This document shows, one piece after another, positions 1 to 63,995 of a DNA stretch of 64,000 nucleotides. Numbering within the stretch: the stretch's first letter is position 1; the number at the start of each line of letters is the position of its first letter. Origin of the DNA: a virus (taxonomy: Duplodnaviria > Caudoviricetes); the IMG/VR virus record IMGVR_UViG_3300034053_000021, positions 203 to 64,202 of that record. One strand, 5' to 3'. Made by a program: the position numbers and the translations under genes. The notes under the pieces are model-generated. The model did no database searches. It had not been told where the DNA came from and saw only the letters and a program-made list of their open reading frames with translations.

Positions 1-1
1 G

Positions 2-454
2 GCCGCTTTGCCTGAGCGCTTCCAGGTTGTCGCGTCCGTAGGCCACCAAGGCAATGGGTGCGCCGCTATTGAAATCTGCCCGCCGTCCGTCCACGTAGTG
101 GAAGTGCGGGCGCCCTTTGAGGAACAGCACACCATCTGCCGAGCCCCAGATCGTTTCGTAAAACATCGCGGTTTCGGTCCGCGCCGGAATCAAGGCAATT
201 CCGTTGCCGTGGTCGCGCATACGCCGCAGCCACTTCACGGCCTCGCGTCCGAATGGCGGGTTGCACCACACACGGCCAAACCACGGCAGCGCCAGCCCGT
301 CGTCCTGCGCCGTGTAGTGCTGTGCCGCTGTTTCCCAAGGCCGCACCGCTGGCGCGCACGGGTCAAGATCGAAGGCACCGAGCGCCCGCAGGATCTCTGG
401 CGGCGTCAGCCATTCGTCGTGTCCGCCGTTCTTCTGGTGCGCACTCAAACCCAT
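2..454 (-). CDS. Phage DNA N6-adenine methyltransferase (Dam-like), 3' end runs off the window
   Basis: Hand translation from ATG 454 (absent from the ORF track): MGLSAHQKNGGHDEWLTPPEILRALGAFDLDPCA...VWCNPPF...IALIPARTET. The EWxTP, FDLDPCA and NPPF motifs are typical of this family. Confidence 0.9.
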   Translation of the reverse strand, partial: MGLSAHQKNGGHDEWLTPPEILRALGAFDLDPCAPAVRPWETAAQHYTAQDDGLALPWFGRVWCNPPFGREAVKWLRRMRDHGNGIALIPARTETAMFYETIWGSADGVLFLKGRPHFHYVDGRRADFNSGAPIALVAYGRDNLEALRQSG

Positions 455-455
455 C

Positions 456-782
456 TCACTTGTCCCCCGTGTGGCACAACCCGTCAGTCGAGCCGACCTC
501 GCGCGATAATGCCGCGCTCGTCGGCTCACTTTTTGCGTTAGAGGGCATGTCCGCCAGTAGCCCAGCCAGCCGTTGCGCGGTACTCCAAACCTTTTTCGGC
601 GGGTTCGGCGTACCGGATCGAATCGCGTCCGGTGTCACCAGCACTGCACGCTGCGGTAGCGTCATCAACTCGCGCAGGAACGGAAGCAATTGGTGTTCTG
701 GCATCGTTCCGGTTTCAATGTGCGGCCCGTGGAACTTGCCACCCTTGCTGCGCCACAGGGCGCGAAGATCGTCGTCTGTCAT
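456..782 (-). CDS. Hypothetical cassette protein; C-terminus read through attC1
   Basis: 108-aa ORF; GAGGA SD just after the attC2 core. Confidence 0.75.
   Translation of the reverse strand: MTDDDLRALWRSKGGKFHGPHIETGTMPEHQLLPFLRELMTLPQRAVLVTPDAIRSGTPNPPKKVWSTAQRLAGLLADMPSNAKSEPTSAALSREVGSTDGLCHTGDK
474..543 (+). mobile_element. Integron attC site 1
   Basis: GCACAAC-5nt-AGT(C)GAGC CGAC...GTCG GCTCACT-6nt-GTTAGAG: R''/L''/L'/R' boxes with an extrahelical C in L''. Confidence 0.9.
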
Positions 783-797
783 GCTGTCCTCTCTGCC

Positions 798-863
798 CTC
801 TAACCCGTCAGTCGAGCGGACTCCGCGCCTGCGGCGCTCCGCTCGCTCACTTTTGAGTTAGTA
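798..863 (+). mobile_element. Integron attC site 2
   Basis: CTCTAAC-CCGTC-AGT(C)GAGC...GCTCACT-TTTGA-GTTAGTA. Confidence 0.9.
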
Positions 864-866
864 GGC

Positions 867-1085
867 TCAGTATTCACAGCACACCTCGAATTCGTGGCCG
901 CATTCCGGGCACTCCACCTCAAGGCTGTTTGCCAGTTTTGTGCCGCTCTCTATGGGTTGCAGACGTTCGTGGTTGACCCAGAAATCGTCGGCCCGCAGTA
1001 GATCAACAAACTCTCCACACTTCGGGCAATCGCAGTTCAAGGAAATGTCCCATGTCGCGCTAACTTCTGCTTTCTTCACCTTCAT
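867..1085 (-). CDS. Small double zinc-ribbon cassette protein
   Basis: CPKC and CPEC motifs; AAGGAG SD. Confidence 0.8.
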   Translation of the reverse strand: MKVKKAEVSATWDISLNCDCPKCGEFVDLLRADDFWVNHERLQPIESGTKLANSLEVECPECGHEFEVCCEY

Positions 1086-1102
1086 CTCCTTTTCGTCCAG
1101 CC

Positions 1103-1189
1103 TTCTAACCCGTTGCTCGTGCGGACCGAATATCGGCGGCGCTCGTTTCTCAATCCGCCTCGCGCGGTCCGCACAGCGCTGCGTTGGGC
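1103..1189 (+). mobile_element. Integron attC site 3
   Basis: TTCTAAC-CCGTT-GCT(C)GTGC GGACCG...CGGTCC GCACAGC-GCTGC-GTTGGGC. Confidence 0.9.
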
Positions 1190-1365
1190 GCCTTCTTCAC
1201 GCCGTCAAATGGTGGAACTTTCAGCCAAATATCTGCGGCATCTTCTGCCGCCATCTGGCCGCTGAACTCCATGCGGAAGCCTCCGTTCGTTTTGATCGAC
1301 ACAACCACAAGCGCCGTTCCTTGCTCGGGGTTCTCTCTCGGCATCGTTGCTCGCCATTTCTTCAT
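1150..1365 (-). CDS. Hypothetical cassette protein; stop codon inside attC3
   Basis: 71-aa ORF ending APNAALCGPREAD. Confidence 0.65.
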   Translation of the reverse strand: MKKWRATMPRENPEQGTALVVVSIKTNGGFRMEFSGQMAAEDAADIWLKVPPFDGVKKAPNAALCGPREAD

Positions 1366-1414
1366 CGCAGTCCTCTCAAAGCGGCATTGCCGCGTAAATT
1401 TTGCAAGTTGCAGC

Positions 1415-1484
1415 GCCCAACTAGGCGTGCAAGCGGGGCGCTGCGCGATAGGGCCGCGCAGCGCCCCTTCACTCGGCGTTGGGG
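1415..1484 (+). mobile_element. Integron attC site 4
   Basis: GCCCAAC-TAGGC-GTG(C)AAG..GGGCGCTGCGCG/CGCGCAGCGCCC..CTTCAC-TCGGC-GTTGGGG. Confidence 0.88.
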
Positions 1485-1488
1485 GTCT

Positions 1489-1740
1489 TCATTGCCGGCA
1501 TCCGATCTGCTTGCCTGCGCTGTCAATTCGTGGCGTCAGCCCTCCGCTCACCGCTTCGAGGTACTGGCAGCCGGTGAGCGCGTCGGTTCGCACCGCTACG
1601 CCGCTTCGCTTCCCCCATTCTCCGGGGTCACTGTCGTCTCGGCTGATCGGCAGCTTTCCTATCAGCACGACCGAGAAATAGAGCACGACGGCCCACTTTG
1701 CCAGCCACTTGGTGTAGTTCTTCAGTTCCTCAGCAGCCAT
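1489..1740 (-). CDS. Membrane-anchored cassette protein (DUF6440-like)
   Basis: Start at MAAEELK; N-terminal TM segment, then TDALTGCQYL..SGGLTPRIDSAGK. Confidence 0.7.
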   Translation of the reverse strand: MAAEELKNYTKWLAKWAVVLYFSVVLIGKLPISRDDSDPGEWGKRSGVAVRTDALTGCQYLEAVSGGLTPRIDSAGKQIGCRQ

Positions 1741-2227
1741 CGCGTTTCCCTTCAAAAGTCGGTGCTGGCTGGACGGCGACCCCCAACCCGTCGTTGCAGG
1801 CGCGACCTCCTTCGGCGGCGGCCTGAACTCGGGCGTTGGGGGCCTTACGCAGCGCCAAGTCCAGCCGCGCCAGTGCATTCCATGCCGCATGTGCCGCGTG
1901 GTGCAGTCCGGTGTCCGGGTCGCATTCCTCGCCAGTCGCCTCTCGCATCAGGTGCCGCAGCATCGCGTCCGTGTAGCGGCGTTCTCCGTCCGGCACTTCC
2001 ATCCAGCCGTTGTCGGTGTACTTGTTTGCGCCGTAGGTGCCCACAGCGCCAACCTCTTGCAGCGCCCGTGCAAACCCACATAACACCAACCCGAGCCGGT
2101 TCTTTCCGGCATCCAGCTTTGCCCCGGCCTCGTTCGGCTTCTTGCCGTTCGGGTCGGCCTCCAGTACCCCGAATGTCTCGGCTCTGTGCTGGTCGTCGGC
2201 GGTCATATGCATTTGGTTCTCCATCAT
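1730..2227 (-). CDS. dATP/dGTP diphosphohydrolase-like protein (DUF5664)
   Basis: GAKLDAGKNR..L...ALQEVGAVGTYGANKY..NGW...YTDAMLRH...DPDTGLHHAAHAAWNAL; the tail reads through attC5. Confidence 0.88.
   Translation of the reverse strand: MMENQMHMTADDQHRAETFGVLEADPNGKKPNEAGAKLDAGKNRLGLVLCGFARALQEVGAVGTYGANKYTDNGWMEVPDGERRYTDAMLRHLMREATGEECDPDTGLHHAAHAAWNALARLDLALRKAPNARVQAAAEGGRACNDGLGVAVQPAPTFEGKRDGC
1781..1841 (+). mobile_element. Integron attC site 5 (last of the array)
   Basis: CCCCAAC-CCGTC-GTT(G)CAGGC...GCCTGAAC-TCGGGC-GTTGGGG. Confidence 0.88.
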
Positions 2228-2230
2228 TCA

Positions 2231-2683
2231 TCAGTCCTCAAAAGTCTGCGCTGGCGATACGGCGCCGACTTTTGCGAGAACATCTCGCGCAATCTGGTTG
2301 CCAATGCTGTTTCCGTAGTGCGGTTCATTGCCAAGCCTCGCCAGCTTTTCGAGTGCCGCAGCAAGTTCGTCGCGCTGCTGCTTCATAGCGAAAAGCTCTT
2401 CCTGAGTTTCTACCAGAGCTGCACCGTTGATGTCCGCCGTCTGCTCGGATGCGGCGAGTTTATATTCAGCATCGCTCAAATCTTTTACAACGGAATCACG
2501 CATCTCCTTTGTTGCTTCCAGTTCAGCGCGCATGTGAGTAACGGCAGCCTCTAGGTGGATGATGTACTCTTGCTTATTCTTAAGTTCAGCGCGTAGTGAT
2601 TCGATTTCATGATGCAAAGGCTTTGTTGCCTCGTCGATTTCTCGCTGCCGCATCTGCCTAGTCAGATCTTGTGTTTCAATCAT
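2231..2683 (-). CDS. Hypothetical coiled-coil protein
   Basis: 150-aa heptad-rich ORF with GGAG SD. Confidence 0.75.
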   Translation of the reverse strand: MIETQDLTRQMRQREIDEATKPLHHEIESLRAELKNKQEYIIHLEAAVTHMRAELEATKEMRDSVVKDLSDAEYKLAASEQTADINGAALVETQEELFAMKQQRDELAAALEKLARLGNEPHYGNSIGNQIARDVLAKVGAVSPAQTFED

Positions 2684-2881
2684 CTCACTCTCCTTGTATT
2701 AGGACCACCCGCATTGTTTCTCCTTCTTCATCCCCCTCTATTGAGATTAAAAGGTGCGGGTGGGTTGATAGGTGGGGTACTCGTGCCCGGGTGATGCCTT
2801 ATGCCGTTGGAGCACTCGACCGCGAATCCGCAATCCAGAAGTGTGGCACATAGGACTTACTCCACTTTCCCCCATTGATCG

Positions 2882-3088
2882 TTAAATCTTCTTGCTTCTC
2901 GTTGCAAATCCACTCGCTCTGGCATAGACGCAATACTCTCCGCCGCTATGCGAGTGGGTGCTGACTACCCTCTGTCCTTCTACGACTGGGCATGCCTTTG
3001 GCTCAGGAGTGTGCATTCCTACGTACATCCCGCCGAAGAAACATCCGACTCCGAACGTGATGACGAAGAGAAACTTCTCGGCGGTCAT
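2882..3088 (-). CDS. Small membrane protein
   Basis: Start reassigned to MTAEKFLFV (GGAG SD); N-terminal TM segment. Confidence 0.65.
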   Translation of the reverse strand: MTAEKFLFVITFGVGCFFGGMYVGMHTPEPKACPVVEGQRVVSTHSHSGGEYCVYARASGFATRSKKI

Positions 3089-3240
3089 CGCTGTATCTCC
3101 AGCAATTGCAACTCCGCATCCCACTGGTCCCACTCGCGTTTGTACTGCCGCACGACACCCGGGTTCATCCCGGTGCTGTTGGCGATGACGTAGGTGAAGT
3201 GGGCGAACCATGCGCAGAACCGGGTGAAGTGGTAGTTCAT
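3085..3240 (-). CDS. Small hypothetical protein (51 aa)
   Basis: MNYHFTRFCAWF...; ATGA overlaps at both ends. Confidence 0.6.
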   Translation of the reverse strand: MNYHFTRFCAWFAHFTYVIANSTGMNPGVVRQYKREWDQWDAELQLLEIQR

Positions 3241-3377
3241 TCCTCGCCCTCCCGTGAGTTTCTAGTTCCAGACCCTTTACATTTCCAACATACCGCGCCG
3301 TCGTACTGTCCTTCGCCTGATCCGCTGCATTCCGGGCACAGATGATCCTCTTGTTCCACCCACTTGTCAATAGTCAT
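3237..3377 (-). CDS. DnaJ-type zinc-finger miniprotein (46 aa)
   Basis: CPECSGSGEG...CWKCKGSG; ATGA-coupled. Confidence 0.7.
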   Translation of the reverse strand: MTIDKWVEQEDHLCPECSGSGEGQYDGAVCWKCKGSGTRNSREGEE

Positions 3378-3646
3378 GGTTCGATCTCCAACTGGTCAGA
3401 AGAGAAACACTTGTTGTCTTGGTACACCTGCCCGGTCACAGCGTCGACGAGAACGTCGTGCCCGCGGTATTTGCAGGGGTACATGGCCCGGACCACGCGC
3501 TCGCGGTTCATGATCTTGACCGTTCGCTTGACGGTCTTCTCCTTGCGGTTGCGCATGTCGGTCAGCCGCGCCGAGCGGATCACCCGCTGCGGGTAAGTCT
3601 CGGAGTCGAAGTCCTTGAATACGATAGTGCGAACGGTTGTCATCAC
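3374..3646 (-). CDS. Hypothetical protein
   Basis: 90-aa ORF in the coupled operon. Confidence 0.7.
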   Translation of the reverse strand: MMTTVRTIVFKDFDSETYPQRVIRSARLTDMRNRKEKTVKRTVKIMNRERVVRAMYPCKYRGHDVLVDAVTGQVYQDNKCFSSDQLEIEP

Positions 3647-4086
3647 ATTACTCCTTGCGCGGTTGGTCTACGTCTAACCTTTTGGGTCATAGCCTTCTCT
3701 ACAGGCCATCGCCGTAAAAATATTCGTGCGAAAAGCGTCGAGTGCTTTATTCCGAAGCGGCGTCCCCATGCCGCCACAGTTTTTGTTTCCCCTGCGTAAG
3801 TGACTTGTAGGTTTCCACGTCGGTTGTTACCTTGTTCGAGCATATCCGCCCACCGACAATTTTCAACATAGTACCCTTTGGAGTTATCCACTCTGTCTAA
3901 GGTTTTACCTGTAGGCTTAACCCCCATGTCGGCCAAAAAATTCTCGAACACAAGCCAGCGATCGCAGACCGTGATGCCTCGGCCACCATACCTACTATAG
4001 TTGTGGGCTTTATGGTTATTGCACCGCCGCAACATATTACGCCAGCAGTCATACGTCGGGGTTCCAGTCATACCATGGGTCTTCAC
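3643..4086 (-). CDS. HNH homing endonuclease
   Basis: THGMTGTPTY..W..ML.RC...YGGRGITVCDRW..FENFLADMG...TLDRVDN..GY..ENCRWA. Confidence 0.92.
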   Translation of the reverse strand: MKTHGMTGTPTYDCWRNMLRRCNNHKAHNYSRYGGRGITVCDRWLVFENFLADMGVKPTGKTLDRVDNSKGYYVENCRWADMLEQGNNRRGNLQVTYAGETKTVAAWGRRFGIKHSTLFARIFLRRWPVEKAMTQKVRRRPTAQGVM

Positions 4087-4943
4087 CTCATCACCCCTCT
4101 CATCTGTGCAAGGATTGCATCCACACTATTTGCCACAATTTCTCGTAGGGCAGTGTCTTTCTTCACCGCGTTTTTATCTAGGTTTGAAAGTACTTGAACG
4201 ACTTCATCCCGTGCAGCAGCTACCTCCACATCCTCAAATATGTTGAGCCCCGGCAACCTGTTCATTAGGTCAACTACGTTCTCTATCGCCGAGGTGTGGA
4301 AGTGGCCACTAGATTTTAACCTACTGCTCAGGTGTGCGAGACTGCTGGCAACACTTTTCCTAAGCTCACCCATCATGGCCTGCACCCGCCCGTTGATCTC
4401 GCCCTCGATCTCAGAACGTATCTCAGCCACGGCATCGTCTGCCATCTCCACGCGGAAGTCCCCCGCCGTCGGGAGCGGCATGATACTCCAGCTCATGGCG
4501 AACTTGTTGCGGACCTCGGACACTGGCGGATAGTCCGCCTCGTTGAACAGGCTGTTGAGCTTGAACCGGGCACGCTCGCGGTGCACGTCGTACTCGGCGC
4601 AGAACGCGTCGACCGCCGTATTGAACTCATGCTGGAAAACACCGAGCTTCTGCACCACGTCGAAGTAATTGACCGACGACACGACGTTGATGCCGTTGTG
4701 CCCCCACGGGAGCGTGTGCTTGTCGAAGAAATCCCGGGCCTTGGATGCGATCTGCTGGATGGGCAGCAGCGCGGCCTTATCGATCGTCTGCTTGTTGAAC
4801 CGCCCGGCGTCGGTCGACGCCTCGTGGGTGTCAGTGACTTCCTTGGTCGCCTGCCGGTCGAGCTTGCGGAACGTGGCTTGGGAGATGCTCAGGCTGATGA
4901 GCATGGCTTTGGATGCGATTTGTGTCATGGTATTACTCCTCAA
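4083..4943 (-). CDS. DUF3150-like phage protein
   Basis: MLISLSIS..TFRKLD, TLPW..NG, FN..DYP motifs; usual companion of AAA/VWA genes. Confidence 0.7.
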   Translation of the reverse strand: MRSNTMTQIASKAMLISLSISQATFRKLDRQATKEVTDTHEASTDAGRFNKQTIDKAALLPIQQIASKARDFFDKHTLPWGHNGINVVSSVNYFDVVQKLGVFQHEFNTAVDAFCAEYDVHRERARFKLNSLFNEADYPPVSEVRNKFAMSWSIMPLPTAGDFRVEMADDAVAEIRSEIEGEINGRVQAMMGELRKSVASSLAHLSSRLKSSGHFHTSAIENVVDLMNRLPGLNIFEDVEVAAARDEVVQVLSNLDKNAVKKDTALREIVANSVDAILAQMRGVMR

Positions 4944-5127
4944 GTGAATGGATCAAGCGAATATAACCTTCTGCGTCGGCGAACGTGGTGAACTCGTCCG
5001 TATCTTTGTTGTGACACGTGTCACAAAATGAGACTGTGTAGTAGTTGCGGCGGTTGTCGTGGTCAACATGGAACGATACGAGGGCGTAGTACCTCCAACC
5101 CCCGAACGTATCCGCCTCAAACCGCAT
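4933..5127 (-). CDS. Small hypothetical protein
   Basis: Start MRFEAD. Confidence 0.55.
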   Translation of the reverse strand: MRFEADTFGGWRYYALVSFHVDHDNRRNYYTVSFCDTCHNKDTDEFTTFADAEGYIRLIHSLEE

Positions 5128-5137
5128 CCCCTGCCGT

Positions 5138-5341
5138 CTAAGTCTGCCCACGATGTTCCAGCGCAAATATCAGCGCTGCCTGCGCGGCTTCGTAGGTATC
5201 GAACTCTTGTGTTTCGCCATGAAGTGGCTCGACACGATACGGCGGTGCCCCATTGGTATCGATGTACATAAACGGTTTGGGCAAGGCGCCGTCGACAACG
5301 ACAGACACCAGCCCTTCGTGTTCTTGGAATTCATAGCTCAT
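5138..5341 (-). CDS. Small hypothetical protein
   Basis: Start MSYEFQ. Confidence 0.6.
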   Translation of the reverse strand: MSYEFQEHEGLVSVVVDGALPKPFMYIDTNGAPPYRVEPLHGETQEFDTYEAAQAALIFALEHRGQT

Positions 5342-5343
5342 AC

Positions 5344-6150
5344 TCACCCCACAAGAATAAGTTCGTTGGCCGAATAGTGATCGGCACACTTCAACTTAGC
5401 CTGGTCACGGTAATGCTCGCGCTCAAGATCGAAATCCACGATACACCGGCAGAGCTGCCACATGCGGGTAACTTCATCGATATCTTTGTTCATAAGTATG
5501 GCATCCTCCACCATTTTGACCTCATCGCGCAAGAACACATCCCACATTGCGGACATACTCGGGTACGCCCTCGACTCGACGACCATCACCGACAGCCGCA
5601 GCTTGGCCTCGGCCCACAGATTCTTCCACCGTGCCTCGAACGCCTTGAACCGCTTGGGGTTGTCGAAGCTGTACTTGATCTTGTGCGAGGTGTATCTACC
5701 CTCGGGCGCGTAATGGTACGGCTTACCCTCAGGCGAATCGTATCCGATGGACCCCGACTTGAGTACGACCTTGTGTTCAACGTCCACCCACAACACAGGA
5801 TTGTCCTCGATACGGCTGACAGGTATCTTACGCCCGGTATGTGGACACTGCAACTTACTTACCAAGTCCTTGGCCGGACGAATCAGTACCCCATACCGCT
5901 CCTCGTTACGCTCTCGCCACGCGGGGTCACGGTCGCCGACATTACACACTTGCAGCTTACCGTCAGCCGCTACGCACACCTGCCCCGCGTCATCGACGTG
6001 CATCTCGAACAGTACTACCGCGCTGTCGGCGGAACCACGCGCGTTGCCTGATATAACCTCAAGTTGTCTGGACACATCGTTTCCGTAGCTGTTCTTGTAC
6101 TGCTGCGTCCAGTACGCACTGGTCATGAACGCCGGGTCTTTGAGTTTCAT
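5344..6150 (-). CDS. Hypothetical protein
   Basis: Start MKLKDP, ATGA-coupled to the upstream gene. Confidence 0.75.
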   Translation of the reverse strand: MKLKDPAFMTSAYWTQQYKNSYGNDVSRQLEVISGNARGSADSAVVLFEMHVDDAGQVCVAADGKLQVCNVGDRDPAWRERNEERYGVLIRPAKDLVSKLQCPHTGRKIPVSRIEDNPVLWVDVEHKVVLKSGSIGYDSPEGKPYHYAPEGRYTSHKIKYSFDNPKRFKAFEARWKNLWAEAKLRLSVMVVESRAYPSMSAMWDVFLRDEVKMVEDAILMNKDIDEVTRMWQLCRCIVDFDLEREHYRDQAKLKCADHYSANELILVG

Positions 6151-9867: not shown

Positions 9868-10926
9868 TTACTCCTGCCACACGCCAGCGTTGGCCACTGC
9901 CCACTTACTGAACGCTGCGGTCATATTCGCCTTGGGCTCGCGGCGTATCGCATCCTTGATGAGCAGCATCGAGAACTCCTGCGGCAGCCGGGCGCTGTAC
10001 TCCACGAGCTGGCCAAAGTTACCCTTGGTGCAGCGCGATGCCAGCGCAGCGCATGTCGAGTACAGGACATCCGGCCGCGTCGGCACCGGAGCATTGGTCG
10101 GGTCCATCAGGATGCCGTCTATCGACGGCATGTCTTCCCATACCCGCATGAACGCCTCCAGTTCGGTCGCCACGCCTTCGCCGATCGTACCGGAGAGCAG
10201 CACCCAACGCAGGTTCGCGGCGTCGGCAGACTGACTGACCTTAGGGAACTCGGACACGATCTCGCATGCAGTCTCCCAACTGCGCGGAGTGGCAAACGCG
10301 ACGTCGGCCTTGCTTGGATCAAATGTGTTCAGTAGGTCCGGCTTGAACCTCAGGAATGCGATCGGTAGTGCATCGAGCCCCTTGACGAAGGCGTAGCTGC
10401 ACCAGTCGTCAAGGCTAGGCACCAACTCCACATGGGTAAACCGATTGGCCAGCGGAGTCGCCATACGATGCGCCCCGCCGCGATCCACCTGCCGGTTGGA
10501 TGCCGCCACGATCCGCACGTTGGGTAAAAGTGCATGCTCGCCGCAGCGACGATCGAGAACCAGCTGGAACGCGACAGACTGAACCGCAGGCATGGCTTGC
10601 ATGATCTCGTCCATGAACAGCCAGATGGTCTTACCCGACTTCGGGCCGGACTTGTCGTTGTCGAACGCCGGGTTACCGATAAACGGCAGGATAGCCGGCG
10701 GATTCCACACGGTCTGGTTCTTGGACACCGAAGGTACGCCACGCATGTCGACCGCATCGAAATTGGCGAGCCTGATGTCCACGATTACATCGGCGTTGTC
10801 CTGTGCCAGCTGGTTGATGATGCTGGACTTACCAATACCAGGACTTGACCAGATCATGAGCGGCTTGTCCAGCTTTGCAGACAGGGTGATGGCCTTGGAC
10901 AACAGATTCGGGGTGAGTTGTTGCAT
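9868..10926 (-). CDS. MoxR-like AAA+ ATPase
   Basis: SSPGIGKS Walker A; LFMDE Walker B; AASN; PLANRF arginine finger. Confidence 0.92.
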   Translation of the reverse strand: MQQLTPNLLSKAITLSAKLDKPLMIWSSPGIGKSSIINQLAQDNADVIVDIRLANFDAVDMRGVPSVSKNQTVWNPPAILPFIGNPAFDNDKSGPKSGKTIWLFMDEIMQAMPAVQSVAFQLVLDRRCGEHALLPNVRIVAASNRQVDRGGAHRMATPLANRFTHVELVPSLDDWCSYAFVKGLDALPIAFLRFKPDLLNTFDPSKADVAFATPRSWETACEIVSEFPKVSQSADAANLRWVLLSGTIGEGVATELEAFMRVWEDMPSIDGILMDPTNAPVPTRPDVLYSTCAALASRCTKGNFGQLVEYSARLPQEFSMLLIKDAIRREPKANMTAAFSKWAVANAGVWQE

Positions 10927-10948
10927 GGTGATACTCCTTTAAGTAAGT

Positions 10949-10978
10949 GGACGTTCTGACGGAATTGTCAGGTTGTCC
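10949..10978. repeat. 12-6-12 palindrome, copy 2
   Basis: GGACGTTCTGAC-GGAATT-GTCAGGTTGTCC, immediately upstream of the AAA gene SD. Confidence 0.8.
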
Positions 10979-11099
10979 GGGTTGATGCAAGAAAGAACAC
11001 TGTTTCGAAATCGTCGCCGGTGGCAACCACGCCGGCATGCGCAAGGTTGCCGTAGCCGTTGCCGTTGCCGTCGCCGTCGCCGTTGCCTCTCCAGAACAC
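10968..11099 (-). CDS. Possible GNGDG-repeat peptide (43 aa, GTG start)
   Basis: VFWRGNGDGDGNGNGYGNL...; in frame with the upstream gene after a TAG. Confidence 0.45.
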   Translation of the reverse strand: MFWRGNGDGDGNGNGYGNLAHAGVVATGDDFETVFFLASTRTT

Positions 11100-11114
11100 G
11101 TCAGTTACCCCAGC

Positions 11115-11282
11115 CTAAGTGAAGTCCAGCCCAAGCTGTCGCGGGACCACATGCGGCAACAGGCTCAATCCGACGAATTCGCCGGACCGGGTGACCCGCA
11201 CACGGTCGGACATCAGCGCTTCATACAGCGCACATGCCCACATGCACCGACGGTGGCAGTATTCTTTATGTGTCAGTTTCAT
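11115..11282 (-). CDS. Small protein (55 aa), paralog of 11846-11979
   Basis: MKLTHKEYCHRRCMW...SGEFVGLSLLPHV; AAGGAGG SD. Confidence 0.7.
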   Translation of the reverse strand: MKLTHKEYCHRRCMWACALYEALMSDRVRVTRSGEFVGLSLLPHVVPRQLGLDFT

Positions 11283-11317
11283 GGCTCAGTCCTCCTTTAA
11301 ATAAATGTGTGGCTGTT

Positions 11318-11347
11318 GGACACTCTGACCAACGTGTCGGGTTGTCC
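11318..11347. repeat. 12-6-12 palindrome, copy 3
   Basis: GGACACTCTGAC-CAACGT-GTCGGGTTGTCC. Confidence 0.75.
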
Positions 11348-11351
11348 GACG

Positions 11352-11642
11352 TTACTTCGTTTTATGCTCGCGCTCAAAATCTCCGAACCCCTCGATCTTG
11401 TCGATCGCGATCCTGTAATACCCGCTCGGGACGCGTTCTGCATTCCCCCACTTATTGGTAGAAAACTCGCCGGTCTCGAACACCCACATAGCGTCCTCCA
11501 GTACGATGTACTTTTCCATCTCTACATCAACGACGCGCCCCGTATATGCAAATGAATCGCAGTTGAAATACAGCGCATGCCCCATAACCTCAGCGCATGC
11601 CGCACGATCCATAAAGTACTGCTTGAGTGTTTGCTTTGTCAT
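11352..11642 (-). CDS. Small beta-rich protein (possibly Sm-like fold)
   Basis: YTGRVVDVE..YIVLEDAMWVFETGEF; preceded by leader copy 3. Confidence 0.7.
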   Translation of the reverse strand: MTKQTLKQYFMDRAACAEVMGHALYFNCDSFAYTGRVVDVEMEKYIVLEDAMWVFETGEFSTNKWGNAERVPSGYYRIAIDKIEGFGDFEREHKTK

Positions 11643-11645
11643 GTG

Positions 11646-11685
11646 AATCTCCTAAGTAAGTGCCGCTGGCCCGCAGCGACTACGG
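11646..11685 (-). promoter_or_regulatory. Repeated 5' leader, copy 3 (partial)
   Basis: AATCTCCTAAGTAAGTGCCGCTGGCCCGCAGCGACTACGG. Confidence 0.75.
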
Positions 11686-11693
11686 TTATTTCT

Positions 11694-11849
11694 TCAGTCC
11701 CTTCCGGCCCAAGCCCAAGCCCCAGCCCTAGCCCCAGCCCCAGCCCCAGCCCCAGCCCGAGCCCTAGCCCGAGCCCTAGCCCGAGCCCTAGCCCCAGCCC
11801 CAGCCCTAGCCCTAGTGTGGAACATCCGACGGTATCGTTTAGGTGTCAT
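11694..11849 (-). CDS. (R/G/W)-A dipeptide-repeat peptide (51 aa)
   Basis: MTPKRYRRMFHT-RARAGAGARA...WAWAGRD, encoded by an (NGGGCT)n tract; ATGA-coupled. Confidence 0.6.
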   Translation of the reverse strand: MTPKRYRRMFHTRARAGAGARARARARARARAGAGAGAGARAGAWAWAGRD

Positions 11850-62208: not shown

Positions 62209-62216
62209 GTTATGCG
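62209..62216 (+). mobile_element. Inferred primary insertion point (G|TTATGCG) of the first cassette
   Basis: Complementary to the attC6 R'' (CGCATAAC) over 8 bp; no attC hairpin on its left. Confidence 0.55.
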
Positions 62217-62569
62217 ACAGTGGGTGTCGGATAATTTAAGTTATGCATCGTCATCAGTGTGCGCAGATCGCAGAGCGCATCAAAACACTGCTCCCTGTCG
62301 TAGCCGTACTTGTGAAACTGCTCCAGCGTATCAATCGCCAGATTCACCGCGCGTTCGCAAAAAGTCGGCGCTGGCGAGACGGCGGGTTCTTCGTCGTAAA
62401 TCGGTTTCCCGCAGCTATCGCACTGGTTCCAGTCCGTTTCCTCAATTCCGTGGCCGGTGCTGCAAGTGCAAAACGGCTCGTCGCCCTCTTCGTCTTCCTG
62501 CATCATCAGCCACTCTTCGTCATAGTCTTCCGGTGGCGGCTGCGCCCCTATCGCGCTTGGCCCCATCAT
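62210..62569 (-). CDS. Cassette gene with zinc finger
   Basis: CTC, CDSCGKPI; TAA stop lies inside the core site. Confidence 0.7.
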   Translation of the reverse strand: MMGPSAIGAQPPPEDYDEEWLMMQEDEEGDEPFCTCSTGHGIEETDWNQCDSCGKPIYDEEPAVSPAPTFCERAVNLAIDTLEQFHKYGYDREQCFDALCDLRTLMTMHNLNYPTPTVA

Positions 62570-62862
62570 TTCAGCCCCGCCTCTGCTCTGAGTTGCCGCA
62601 CTGCCTCATTGTGTGCGTCTGCGATGTATTCAGCGTTCGGCATTCGCATAATCTCAGTCAGGTCTTTCGCGTACTTGCGGATAAAGTTGCGCAAGTCAAT
62701 TACATCTTCGGCGCAGCAATCGTGTTCCTCTGTCTTTATCTTCAGTGCCGTCTCAAGCCGGTGAATCTCTGCCGCACACTCTCCGTGCGGATCGCCATCT
62801 GGCTGTTCATCAAACATTGCCTTCTCCTCTCGCGCCTCGCGCATTGCCTGTCCGAAATTCAT
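62566..62862 (-). CDS. Cassette gene, coiled coil
   Basis: GDPHGECAAEI.RL; GGAGG SD just after the attC6 core. Confidence 0.75.
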   Translation of the reverse strand: MNFGQAMREAREEKAMFDEQPDGDPHGECAAEIHRLETALKIKTEEHDCCAEDVIDLRNFIRKYAKDLTEIMRMPNAEYIADAHNEAVRQLRAEAGLK

Positions 62863-62878
62863 CTCTTCCTCCAAATCC

Positions 62879-62946
62879 GCATAACACGTCGCTCAACACG
62901 GACGCAGGCAATAAAGCCGCCTGCGCCGGTTAGCTAGGCGTTATGC
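62879..62946 (+). mobile_element. Integron attC site 6
   Basis: GCATAAC-ACGTC-GCT(C)AAC(A)CGG(A)CGCAGGC...GCCTGCG CCG GTTAGC-TAGGC-GTTATGC; three extrahelical bases. Confidence 0.92.
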
Positions 62947-63251
62947 CTCGCGTACAGTGGAGTCCATGCCCCGCTGTTTTTTCGCACATACTCGATCTGT
63001 TCATCCATGATCGGGCCTTCGTAGCATCCGTCGCTGCAAAAACGAATCCATGCAACAGGCTTTGCCGTCTCGTCAGCGCCGACTTTTCTGCACTTGTCGC
63101 GCATCAGTTCAATCATCCGCTCGCGCTCCTGCGCTCTATCACTGTGGTGCTCAGCCGTTGCCCAGCAATCACGAAGATCCCTCAGCGCTACCGTGTCGTC
63201 AGTCGGGCAGTACTTCGGGTTTCGTGCCCTCATCCAGTTGTCGAAGGTCAT
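62934..63251 (-). CDS. Cassette gene (KPVAW...WTPLY module); stop codon inside attC6
   Basis: Start MTFDNW; ATGA-coupled. Confidence 0.75.
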   Translation of the reverse strand: MTFDNWMRARNPKYCPTDDTVALRDLRDCWATAEHHSDRAQERERMIELMRDKCRKVGADETAKPVAWIRFCSDGCYEGPIMDEQIEYVRKNSGAWTPLYARHNA

Positions 63252-63973
63252 GGCATCACCACCTTGCTTTCCGCTGGCGGTTTCGGCAACGGCATCCAAG
63301 TTGCAGCGGCCATCTTCTGGTTGCTGTGCCAGAAAATCCCGCCAATCCAAGCGCCGTGAACAGTCTTGCCGCCACGGACAAATAAAACCTCTTGTGCTTC
63401 TTGCGGAAGTTCATCAACCACGTCGCGCCAGCGCGGGGCATCTTCAAGTCGCTCAACCAGTCCAGCCACAAACCCGCCCTGTTCAAGTTCTTCCGTCGTC
63501 ACTCCGGTGCAAGCATTCACGCAGGCCGCAATCCTCCGGGCATCGGTTTTCCGTGGATTCACCATATCGAGCAATTTGCCAACACCTTCGTCGTCCCTCA
63601 GTAAAGAGGTGGAAAGCAGGTTATTTCGGTACATGTATTCCGCAGCCTTTACCGCTACGTCATTGGCCACCGATCCCTTGTTTATTTGCCTGCACAGGCG
63701 GTTAACCAATGCGGCAAGGTTCTCAATCGTGTCGATCAAACCAAGCACCGTCGCAGGGTTCGCCGCTGCGTAGAACTTCGCCAACTTGAGCGAATCATCT
63801 GCCGCGTAATACTGGTCGCAATCAACGGTTGTCACACAATACTTCTCACCGTCCTCGCTAATGTGGCCAACCGCTGCCGCAAGTTCGTCCTCCGCAGGGT
63901 CAAGCCACGCGGTATCGCAGTTGCTCCAGCCTTTCACGTCTTCGGCCAGTGCTTTCAGTTTTCCCAGTTCCAT
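63248..63973 (-). CDS. Cassette gene, Ead/Ea22-like N-terminus + DUF551-like C-terminus
   Basis: AKFYAAANPATVL.LI; NARRIAACVNAC-like motif; W....ELP...WMPLP.PP. Confidence 0.8.
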   Translation of the reverse strand: MELGKLKALAEDVKGWSNCDTAWLDPAEDELAAAVGHISEDGEKYCVTTVDCDQYYAADDSLKLAKFYAAANPATVLGLIDTIENLAALVNRLCRQINKGSVANDVAVKAAEYMYRNNLLSTSLLRDDEGVGKLLDMVNPRKTDARRIAACVNACTGVTTEELEQGGFVAGLVERLEDAPRWRDVVDELPQEAQEVLFVRGGKTVHGAWIGGIFWHSNQKMAAATWMPLPKPPAESKVVMP

Positions 63974-63995
63974 TCCTCGTCCTTTCATCGTTAAG

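Follow-up and report, generated by a model that had tools for sequence, protein, structure and literature searches.

A phage array of seven attC sites with its cassette genes on the bottom strand, a probable member of a phage-borne pool of reversed integron cassettes

Integrons are regarded as bacterial devices, and their logic requires gene cassettes to enter in one orientation behind the cassette promoter, Pc. In sedentary chromosomal integrons individual reversed cassettes are known, and these typically encode toxin–antitoxin pairs with promoters of their own. Phages have been found to carry attC clusters that have no integron-integrase (CALINs); those of TJE1 and PH101 were described as following the typical bacterial arrangement, and attC sites of this kind, including those of TJE1, are recombined by IntI1 (Qi et al. 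2023, PMC9892861). An inverted integron-integrase group, comprising Treponema and others, in which intI and the cassette genes are co-directional, has also been defined (Cury et al. 2016, PMC4889954). Phage CALINs and integrons, the inverted group and single reversed cassettes are therefore already published, and a full-text literature search turned up no account of reversed cassettes forming a phage-linked pool, nor of such a layout in a phage IntI clade. Here we describe an attC array in the IMG/VR virus record IMGVR_UViG_3300034053_000021 (Duplodnaviria; Caudoviricetes), analysed as a stretch of 64,000 nucleotides (bases 203–64,202 of the 64,202-bp record). This stretch is referred to as the window, and coordinates are window positions unless another source is named. 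It is very probable that the phage carries a single array of seven attC sites without intI, with the attC top strand on + and the genes on −, and that this array belongs to a large phage-borne pool of cassettes reversed in the same way.

The closest parallels are the phage CALINs of TJE1 and PH101, which likewise consist of an attC array without intI in a phage genome and carry DNA methyltransferase cargo. Those arrays have the typical bacterial arrangement, whereas the genes occupy the bottom strand in this phage and in the majority of over 100 related contigs. With betaproteobacterial and class 1 integrons the array shares the attC type and geometry, crossovers at the G/TT of R′ (the slash marks the crossover) and chimeric R boxes. 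Relatives that encode an integrase also resemble canonical integrons in having intI at the same end of the array, with the attC top strands pointing away from it. The array differs from canonical integrons in that the open reading frame (ORF) is on the opposite strand, which puts attC 5′ of the gene in the mRNA. With transcription directed toward intI instead of away, a Pc located at the attI end would be of no use, and the phage described here has no intI at all. The inverted group shares co-directional intI and cassette genes with the phage relatives; unlike that group, the relatives keep intI opposite to the attC top strand and it is the genes that are flipped. Finally, the reversed cassettes of sedentary integrons are scattered exceptions with their own promoters, whereas here whole arrays and a pool are reversed, and the cassettes are apparently promoterless.

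The record ends in direct terminal repeats of 125 bp, and the phage genome is complete and terminally redundant, with 64,077 bp of unique sequence encoding a large terminase, a portal protein, a family-A DNA polymerase, a primase-helicase and a helicase. Joined across the terminal repeat, the array contains seven attC sites within ~4 kb. Six of these lie in the window, and the seventh, s0, falls outside it because the array wraps round the repeat (Table 1). On the + strand every site reads R″ (7 nt), 5 nt, L″ (8 nt, bulged at position 16), a variable stem, L′ (7 nt), 5 or 6 nt, and R′ (7 nt). The bulge is the fourth base of L″, a C in six of the seven sites and a G in s5. A second extrahelical base, an A at about position 23–25 of the top strand in a GAC or CGA context, is present in all sites except s4. 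AAC and GTT triplets with flanking complementarity occur in all seven, with some R″ boxes, such as GCACAAC, departing from strict RYYY. In the published rule for attC sites, the extrahelical bottom-strand bases G16 and T23/24 belong to the R″–L″ arm (Nivina et al., PMC5027507). The same geometry is found on the gene-sense strand of 11 class 1 attC sites downstream of annotated resistance genes in three class 1 integrons, which were retrieved via their attI1 site.

At its left end the array stops at a bare G/TTATGC, complementary to R″ (GCATAAC) of the first attC and placed where an attI or a secondary attG-type site is expected; this would fit an initial insertion at a secondary GTT site. As in a CALIN, at least two attC sites lie close together with no intI nearby. 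A complete integron has intI, attI and Pc next to its array; here intI is absent and the left end consists of the bare motif.

The + strand of the window is confirmed as the attC top strand. Initial scans for attC by regular expression and by folding suffered from excess strictness or from many false positives and were replaced by a stricter geometric detector, which requires a Watson–Crick L box plus stem extension and was validated on class 1 and IntI-linked arrays. This detector finds the 11 class 1 sites on the gene-sense strand only, and in IntI-linked bacterial loci its strand is the intI-defined top strand in 77 of 82 cases and the other strand in 5. A covariance model, R1, was built from 30 canonical attC sites oriented by intI or by gene annotation, 22 from betaproteobacterial-type arrays next to intI and 8 from class 1 cassettes. 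Searched against the window with filters off, R1 matches all six sites on the + strand at 28–47 bits (E 6e-11 to 2e-5) and returns no match at these sites on the − strand at E ≤ 1. An Rfam scan of the window gave no match, Rfam being without an attC family. Of the six phage sites folded, five have their more stable hairpin on the − strand. Among 354 related viral sites the bottom strand folds the more stably in 290 (mean −1.63 kcal/mol), and the top strand shows negative GC and AT skews. Bacterial control sites are nearly the same (−1.51 kcal/mol; 234 versus 40), and published values for attC sites of mobile integrons run in the same direction for both strand stability and skew (PMC5027507). 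In structure, the seven sites are ordinary integron integrase substrates.

Every cassette ORF lies on the − strand, the recombinogenic bottom strand of the sites, and several have family matches. In a canonical gene cassette a promoterless ORF occupies the attC top strand and lies upstream of the attC that belongs to it; here every ORF is on the bottom strand. At the sites starting at 474, 798, 1103, 1415 and 1781, a Shine-Dalgarno sequence and ATG come 19, 15, 17, 49 and 40 nt after the R″ complement, respectively. The 3′ end of the Dam gene leaves the window and runs into s0. Three of the five cassette ORFs (c1, c3 and Dam) enter or cross the neighbour's attC before their stop (window 456–543 and 1150–1189; genome 135–183), and their C-termini would consequently change on cassette reshuffling. 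The preliminary description of this DNA, made from the sequence alone, had put the extrahelical base of L″ on the + strand in all six window sites and every cassette ORF on the − strand, with its Shine-Dalgarno sequence and ATG just after R″. The geometry bears out the first of these statements and s0 is alike; the second stands too, with a spacing of 15–49 nt and with Dam and PHROG matches on the − strand. A covariance model calling − the top strand was to have overturned the assignment, and R1 chose + at six sites out of six.

Cassette structure and polarity were also examined through the pattern of exchange. Pairing between the R′ of a site and the R″ of its successor covers 9–10 of 10 positions, compared with only 4–9 of 10 for the site's own R″; since R″ and R′ are mutually reverse complementary, this pairing proves cassette structure, not polarity. 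Two pattern scans of IMG/VR, the second of which matched 104 stretches, gave 108 loci with this attC type. An all-against-all comparison of cassette bodies in the first nine loci yielded too few shared cassettes. Where near-identical attC cores recur in different contigs, the R″-side (left) flank alone is shared in seven pairs, about five of them independent, and the R′-side flank alone in none. The ends of homology blocks between contigs (blocks at least 90% identical; ends within 8 nt) fall at the G/TT of R′ 36 times and at R″ 5 times. The DNA that moves together with the attC core is the part in which the ORF begins, rather than that in which it ends. Together, the break positions and the core–flank linkage define a unit that is canonical in top-strand terms (TTRRRY, body, R″, L″, stem, L′, G) with the gene reversed inside it, and they indicate that the cassette polarity is functional. 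In mRNA order each unit presents an attC hairpin, a Shine-Dalgarno sequence, the ORF and a stop, which often lies at or near the RYYYAA/C box across related arrays.

The diphosphohydrolase gene of this phage lacks an attC. Matches to it in other metagenome contigs begin at 1832–1833, beside the G/TT of s5, behind a different attC core, and an attC follows the gene there. In one wastewater metagenome contig the gene forms a true cassette (window 1832–2256), which after 2256 runs into GTATAAC-ACGGC-GGTCAACA, the start of an attC; the site belonging to this gene seems to have been lost in this phage. Contigs from public sequencing runs share cassettes and attC cores only, in other contexts; at most 9% of the sampled words occurred in any one run, and no RNA run was among those listed. 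A megablast search of window 1–6000 against GenBank phages gave no match. Backbone searches returned one partial match for a 150-aa neighbour gene and one relative, at 29% identity, for the DNA polymerase; neither carried an array.

The orientation of cassette genes was then compared between viral and bacterial loci using one attC sequence type and one pipeline, the geometric detector combined with a codon-usage strand call. The bacterial set, recruited with the same attC pattern from one genome per prokaryote species, comprises 120 loci, mostly from Betaproteobacteria. Unique cassettes are 223 antisense and 63 sense in viral loci against 36 antisense and 186 sense in bacterial loci (Fisher p 3e-46). 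Before deduplication the viral contigs held 248 antisense and 70 sense cassettes and the bacterial loci 36 and 187, respectively (5 and 49 with intI in the locus); class 1 controls in the same pipeline were sense in seven of eight cases. Arrays of at least three cassettes divide in the same manner, with 37 antisense and 6 sense in the viral set and 4 antisense and 25 sense in the bacterial set. The R1 strand equals the geometric strand in all 16 viral loci tested (149 matches). In 150 random viral cassettes, the antisense ORFs match 11 Pfam families in ~21 ORFs (the two-domain DHH/DHHA1 pair counted once) and include 13 DNA methyltransferases, whereas the best sense-strand ORFs of the same cassettes give a single Pfam match. 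By these matches the pool is rich in DNA methyltransferases, and it joins the attC type of betaproteobacterial integrons to a flipped gene.

Individual contigs depart from these distributions in several ways. One viral contig (L057) has two attC arrays on opposite strands (9–2948 and 10006–11718). In four bacterial contigs (L118, L121, L229 and L199) most cassettes are antisense, and these contigs may represent reversed-class prophages; two contigs classed as viral (L287 and L063) resemble canonical integrons.

Table 1 Features of the attC array and its cassettes (window coordinates unless marked as genome)
Feature	Position	Strand	Evidence and remarks
attC s0	genome 121-183, just outside window	+	geometry
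attC s1	474-543	+	R1 46.6 bits, E 6.5e-11; geometry
attC s2	798-863	+	R1 36.7 bits, E 5.3e-08
attC s3	1103-1189	+	R1 28.1 bits, E 1.7e-05
attC s4	1415-1484	+	R1 29.4 bits, E 7e-06
attC s5, last site, right end of array	1781-1841	+	R1 46.8 bits, E 5.8e-11
attC site 6	62879-62946	+	R1 41.0 bits, E 2.9e-09; C at position 16
Array left end, bare G/TTATGC	62209-62215	+	sequence; no hairpin to left
Dam-type DNA adenine methyltransferase	2-454	-	PF05869 1.7e-09; phrog_111 2e-41
Cassette ORF c1, 108 aa, orphan	456-782	-	reads through whole s1, stop at 456
Cassette ORF c2, 72 aa, zinc-ribbon-like	867-1085	-	phrog_4173 8e-10
Cassette ORF c3, 71 aa, orphan	1150-1365	-	ends inside s3
Cassette ORF c4, 83 aa	1489-1740	-	phrog_14094 1e-12; DUF6440 3.4e-05
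dATP/dGTP diphosphohydrolase gene	1730-2227	-	PF18909 7.9e-26; beyond last attC, R′ side of s5
First cassette body	62210-62874	-	small ORFs 62210-62569 and 62566-62874, no family match
Two-gene cassette	62934-63988	-	138-aa orphan ORF 62934-63350 and 246-aa Ead/Ea22-like ORF 63248-63988; ends in s0

Some viral contigs encode an IntI 57% identical to IntI1, and a scan with that protein recovered 71 viral loci. Five viral IntIs tested against the integron integrase profile TIGR02249 score 437–479 bits (cut-off 265), and the IntIs of phage relatives are 55–65% identical to IntI1. In a phylogenetic tree, 41 viral sequences form one clade with 100/97 support, and all 14 bacterial IntIs fall outside it; since the viral sequences were recruited by similarity to one IntI, the exclusivity of this clade needs a wider sample. 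Its members are accompanied by eight antisense arrays and one two-cassette ‘sense’ case. Viral contigs with intI hold 74 antisense and 22 sense cassettes, 11 of the latter in one contig. Wherever an array has called cassettes 5′ of intI, its attC top strand faces away from the integrase gene and lies opposite to it, which places these loci outside the inverted integron-integrase group. Cassette ORFs, intI and the neighbouring phage genes of these relatives all read in one direction. In the 42.7-kb contig L235 (L235:9912–15197), the final cassette gene encodes a methyltransferase and stops at a GCACAAC box, 82 bp ahead of the start codon of intI, and intI is followed by a co-directional 640-aa ParB-like gene and then by a second, ordinary phage tyrosine integrase. 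The second integrase and the ParB-like gene downstream of intI mark this contig as a temperate phage. A reverse transcriptase gene lies ~4 kb beyond the second integrase on the other strand. The cargo of another relative (L045) includes a 3′–5′ exonuclease, a DHH phosphoesterase and a Mom-like protein.

A conserved motif of ~26 nt, CAAAAGTCGGCGCTGGCGGTACGGCG, occurs just 5′ of the RYYYAAC box in some cassettes (window 1752–1780 and 2239–2274; 113 places in viral loci). On the top strand it sits between the Shine-Dalgarno sequence of the ORF and R″, and in the other orientation it supplies the last codons of an ORF (‘KVGAG..’). The density of the motif in viral loci is about four times that in bacterial loci (57 versus 13 per Mb), and the copy at 2239–2274 forms a hairpin with its own partial complement. 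A role as an extension of the attC stem was considered and dropped, as only 13 of 308 strict sites have the motif and none has it on both sides.

Genes on the − strand occupy positions 1 to ~15.4 kb and ~48–64 kb, so the array belongs to an extended block of leftward genes that spans the contig ends. Upstream of the array, the − strand has promoter-like sites at 3370–3342 and 3866–3839, and eight of the nine terminator-like sites in window 1–4000 are on the + strand. GC skew tracks gene strand and gives no separate replication direction. From this organization we infer that the cassettes would be expressed by read-through from leftward phage promoters, in which case no Pc would be needed. Their exchange would be carried out by an IntI supplied by the host or a prophage in this phage, and by the phage's own IntI in the relatives. 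The strand that is transcribed may matter for the flip itself: at least five U within the 9 nt after the stem are found in 65 of 352 viral sites read as top-strand RNA, compared with 9 of 352 read as bottom-strand RNA. With fewer U-tracts, the reversed direction would avoid a chain of weak terminators ahead of downstream phage genes. The flip may have been favoured because it keeps everything co-directional in the phage operon, intI included, and because it presents the less terminator-like strand as RNA; it may in addition place the folding strand on the non-template strand or on the lagging-strand template.

Several points weigh against assigning the array to a reversed, phage-specific pool. 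A search of the complete 64-kb genome with TIGR02249 found no tyrosine recombinase or IntI match, and the ending of three of the five ORFs in codons of the neighbouring cassette's attC is awkward for a mobile unit. The cultured Tetrasphaera phage TJE1 is canonical, with three attC sites on the gene-sense strand that R1 scores at 28–34 bits (L303:244–1519). On the side of method, the strand of small ORFs was called by a codon-usage heuristic, and about a fifth of the viral cassettes were called sense; IMG/VR contigs classed as viral may include bacterial or prophage DNA; and all loci were recruited by one attC pattern or one IntI query. R1 and the geometric detector were both self-built, and the R1 training sites had passed the same geometric filter, which makes the two not fully independent. 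TJE1 and the six sense viral arrays mean that reversal characterizes a lineage or pool and not phages in general. The preliminary description had proposed tabulating ORF strand against attC polarity in phage and bacterial genomes, and the bias it looked for was found. Its distinct, phage-adapted cassette class holds in so far as viral and bacterial loci are biased in opposite directions, but not as a rule for all phages, given TJE1. The co-orientation with leftward transcription that it described is supported at the sequence level, by gene order, Shine-Dalgarno sites and the promoter and terminator scans.

As to why such a pool would exist, we incline to the view that phages of Betaproteobacteria, and perhaps of other groups, keep an integron lineage of their own, with a distinct IntI clade and a separate pool of bottom-strand ORFs that is swapped between integrase-encoding temperate phages and virulent phages, the present one among them, that borrow the enzyme, and that the reversal is an adaptation. 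The pool would supply DNA methyltransferases and other likely anti-defence genes, and reversal may keep phages apart from the defence and toxin genes in the bacterial cassette pool. A serious rival, which we regard as possible but unlikely, accepts the reversal as real and treats it as neutral: one early backwards insertion would have founded the pool, and isolation, that is, exchange of expressed genes only with arrays of the same polarity, would have preserved it without any advantage. IntI can insert at secondary GTT sites in both orientations (Loot et al., 10.1101/2022.09.11.507474), and a single origin would agree with the one clade into which the viral IntIs associated with reversed arrays fall. 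Phages have sense arrays as well, namely that of TJE1 and 6 of 44 viral arrays. Such a founder effect with pool isolation has to be set against two plausible selective gains of the reversed layout, namely the ~7-fold reduction in terminator-like hairpins in the direction that is read and the co-direction of intI with the operon.

The other alternatives deny the reversal itself and fare much worse. It is very improbable that the polarity has been misassigned, with − as the functional top strand and ordinary cassettes in which each gene would then have its own attC. Because R″ and R′ are reverse complements, a RYYYAAC...GTTRRRY pattern can be read on either strand, and several ORFs end inside the downstream attC, as canonical ORFs often do. 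The R1 matches, however, are confined to the + strand, where the AAC arm also carries the extrahelical bases and the spacers of 5 versus 5–6 nt; breaks concentrate at R′ (36 against 5 at R″), the core–flank linkage is 7 to 0, and in the relatives with intI the same polarity points away from the integrase, as it does canonically. Still harder to credit is the idea that the hairpins represent intergenic repeats of the phage (terminators, for example, or regulatory stem-loops such as T4 PeSL elements) that merely resemble attC and are shuffled by homologous recombination. The sites do lie between small early genes in a plastic region, and this phage encodes no integrase; yet they have the full attC architecture, including both extrahelical bases, a sequence type identical to that of IntI-linked bacterial arrays, and chimeric R boxes with breaks at G/TT, and relatives have a true IntI directly beside such arrays. 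No more credible is a decaying bacterial integron fragment that landed backwards and bears spurious − strand ORFs: GC-rich DNA does give long ORFs on both strands, but here the − strand ORFs have Dam and PHROG matches and Shine-Dalgarno sites while the + strand ORFs have none, and the cargo is of phage type across the family (13 DNA methyltransferases in 150 cassettes, with Mom-like, DHH and 3′–5′ exonuclease genes).

If phages do maintain a pool of opposite gene polarity with its own IntI clade, the picture of integrons as bacterial devices would change. Surveys that assume sense cassettes would mis-annotate or miss phage cargo. The layout also constitutes a natural experiment on cassette birth, in which typical phage genes acquired an attC on their 5′ side, and on how strand availability controls attC folding. 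The orientation of a gene relative to its attC would be set by where transcription originates, not by the chemistry of recombination, and phages, too, would use integron recombination as a means of shuffling their early and anti-restriction genes.

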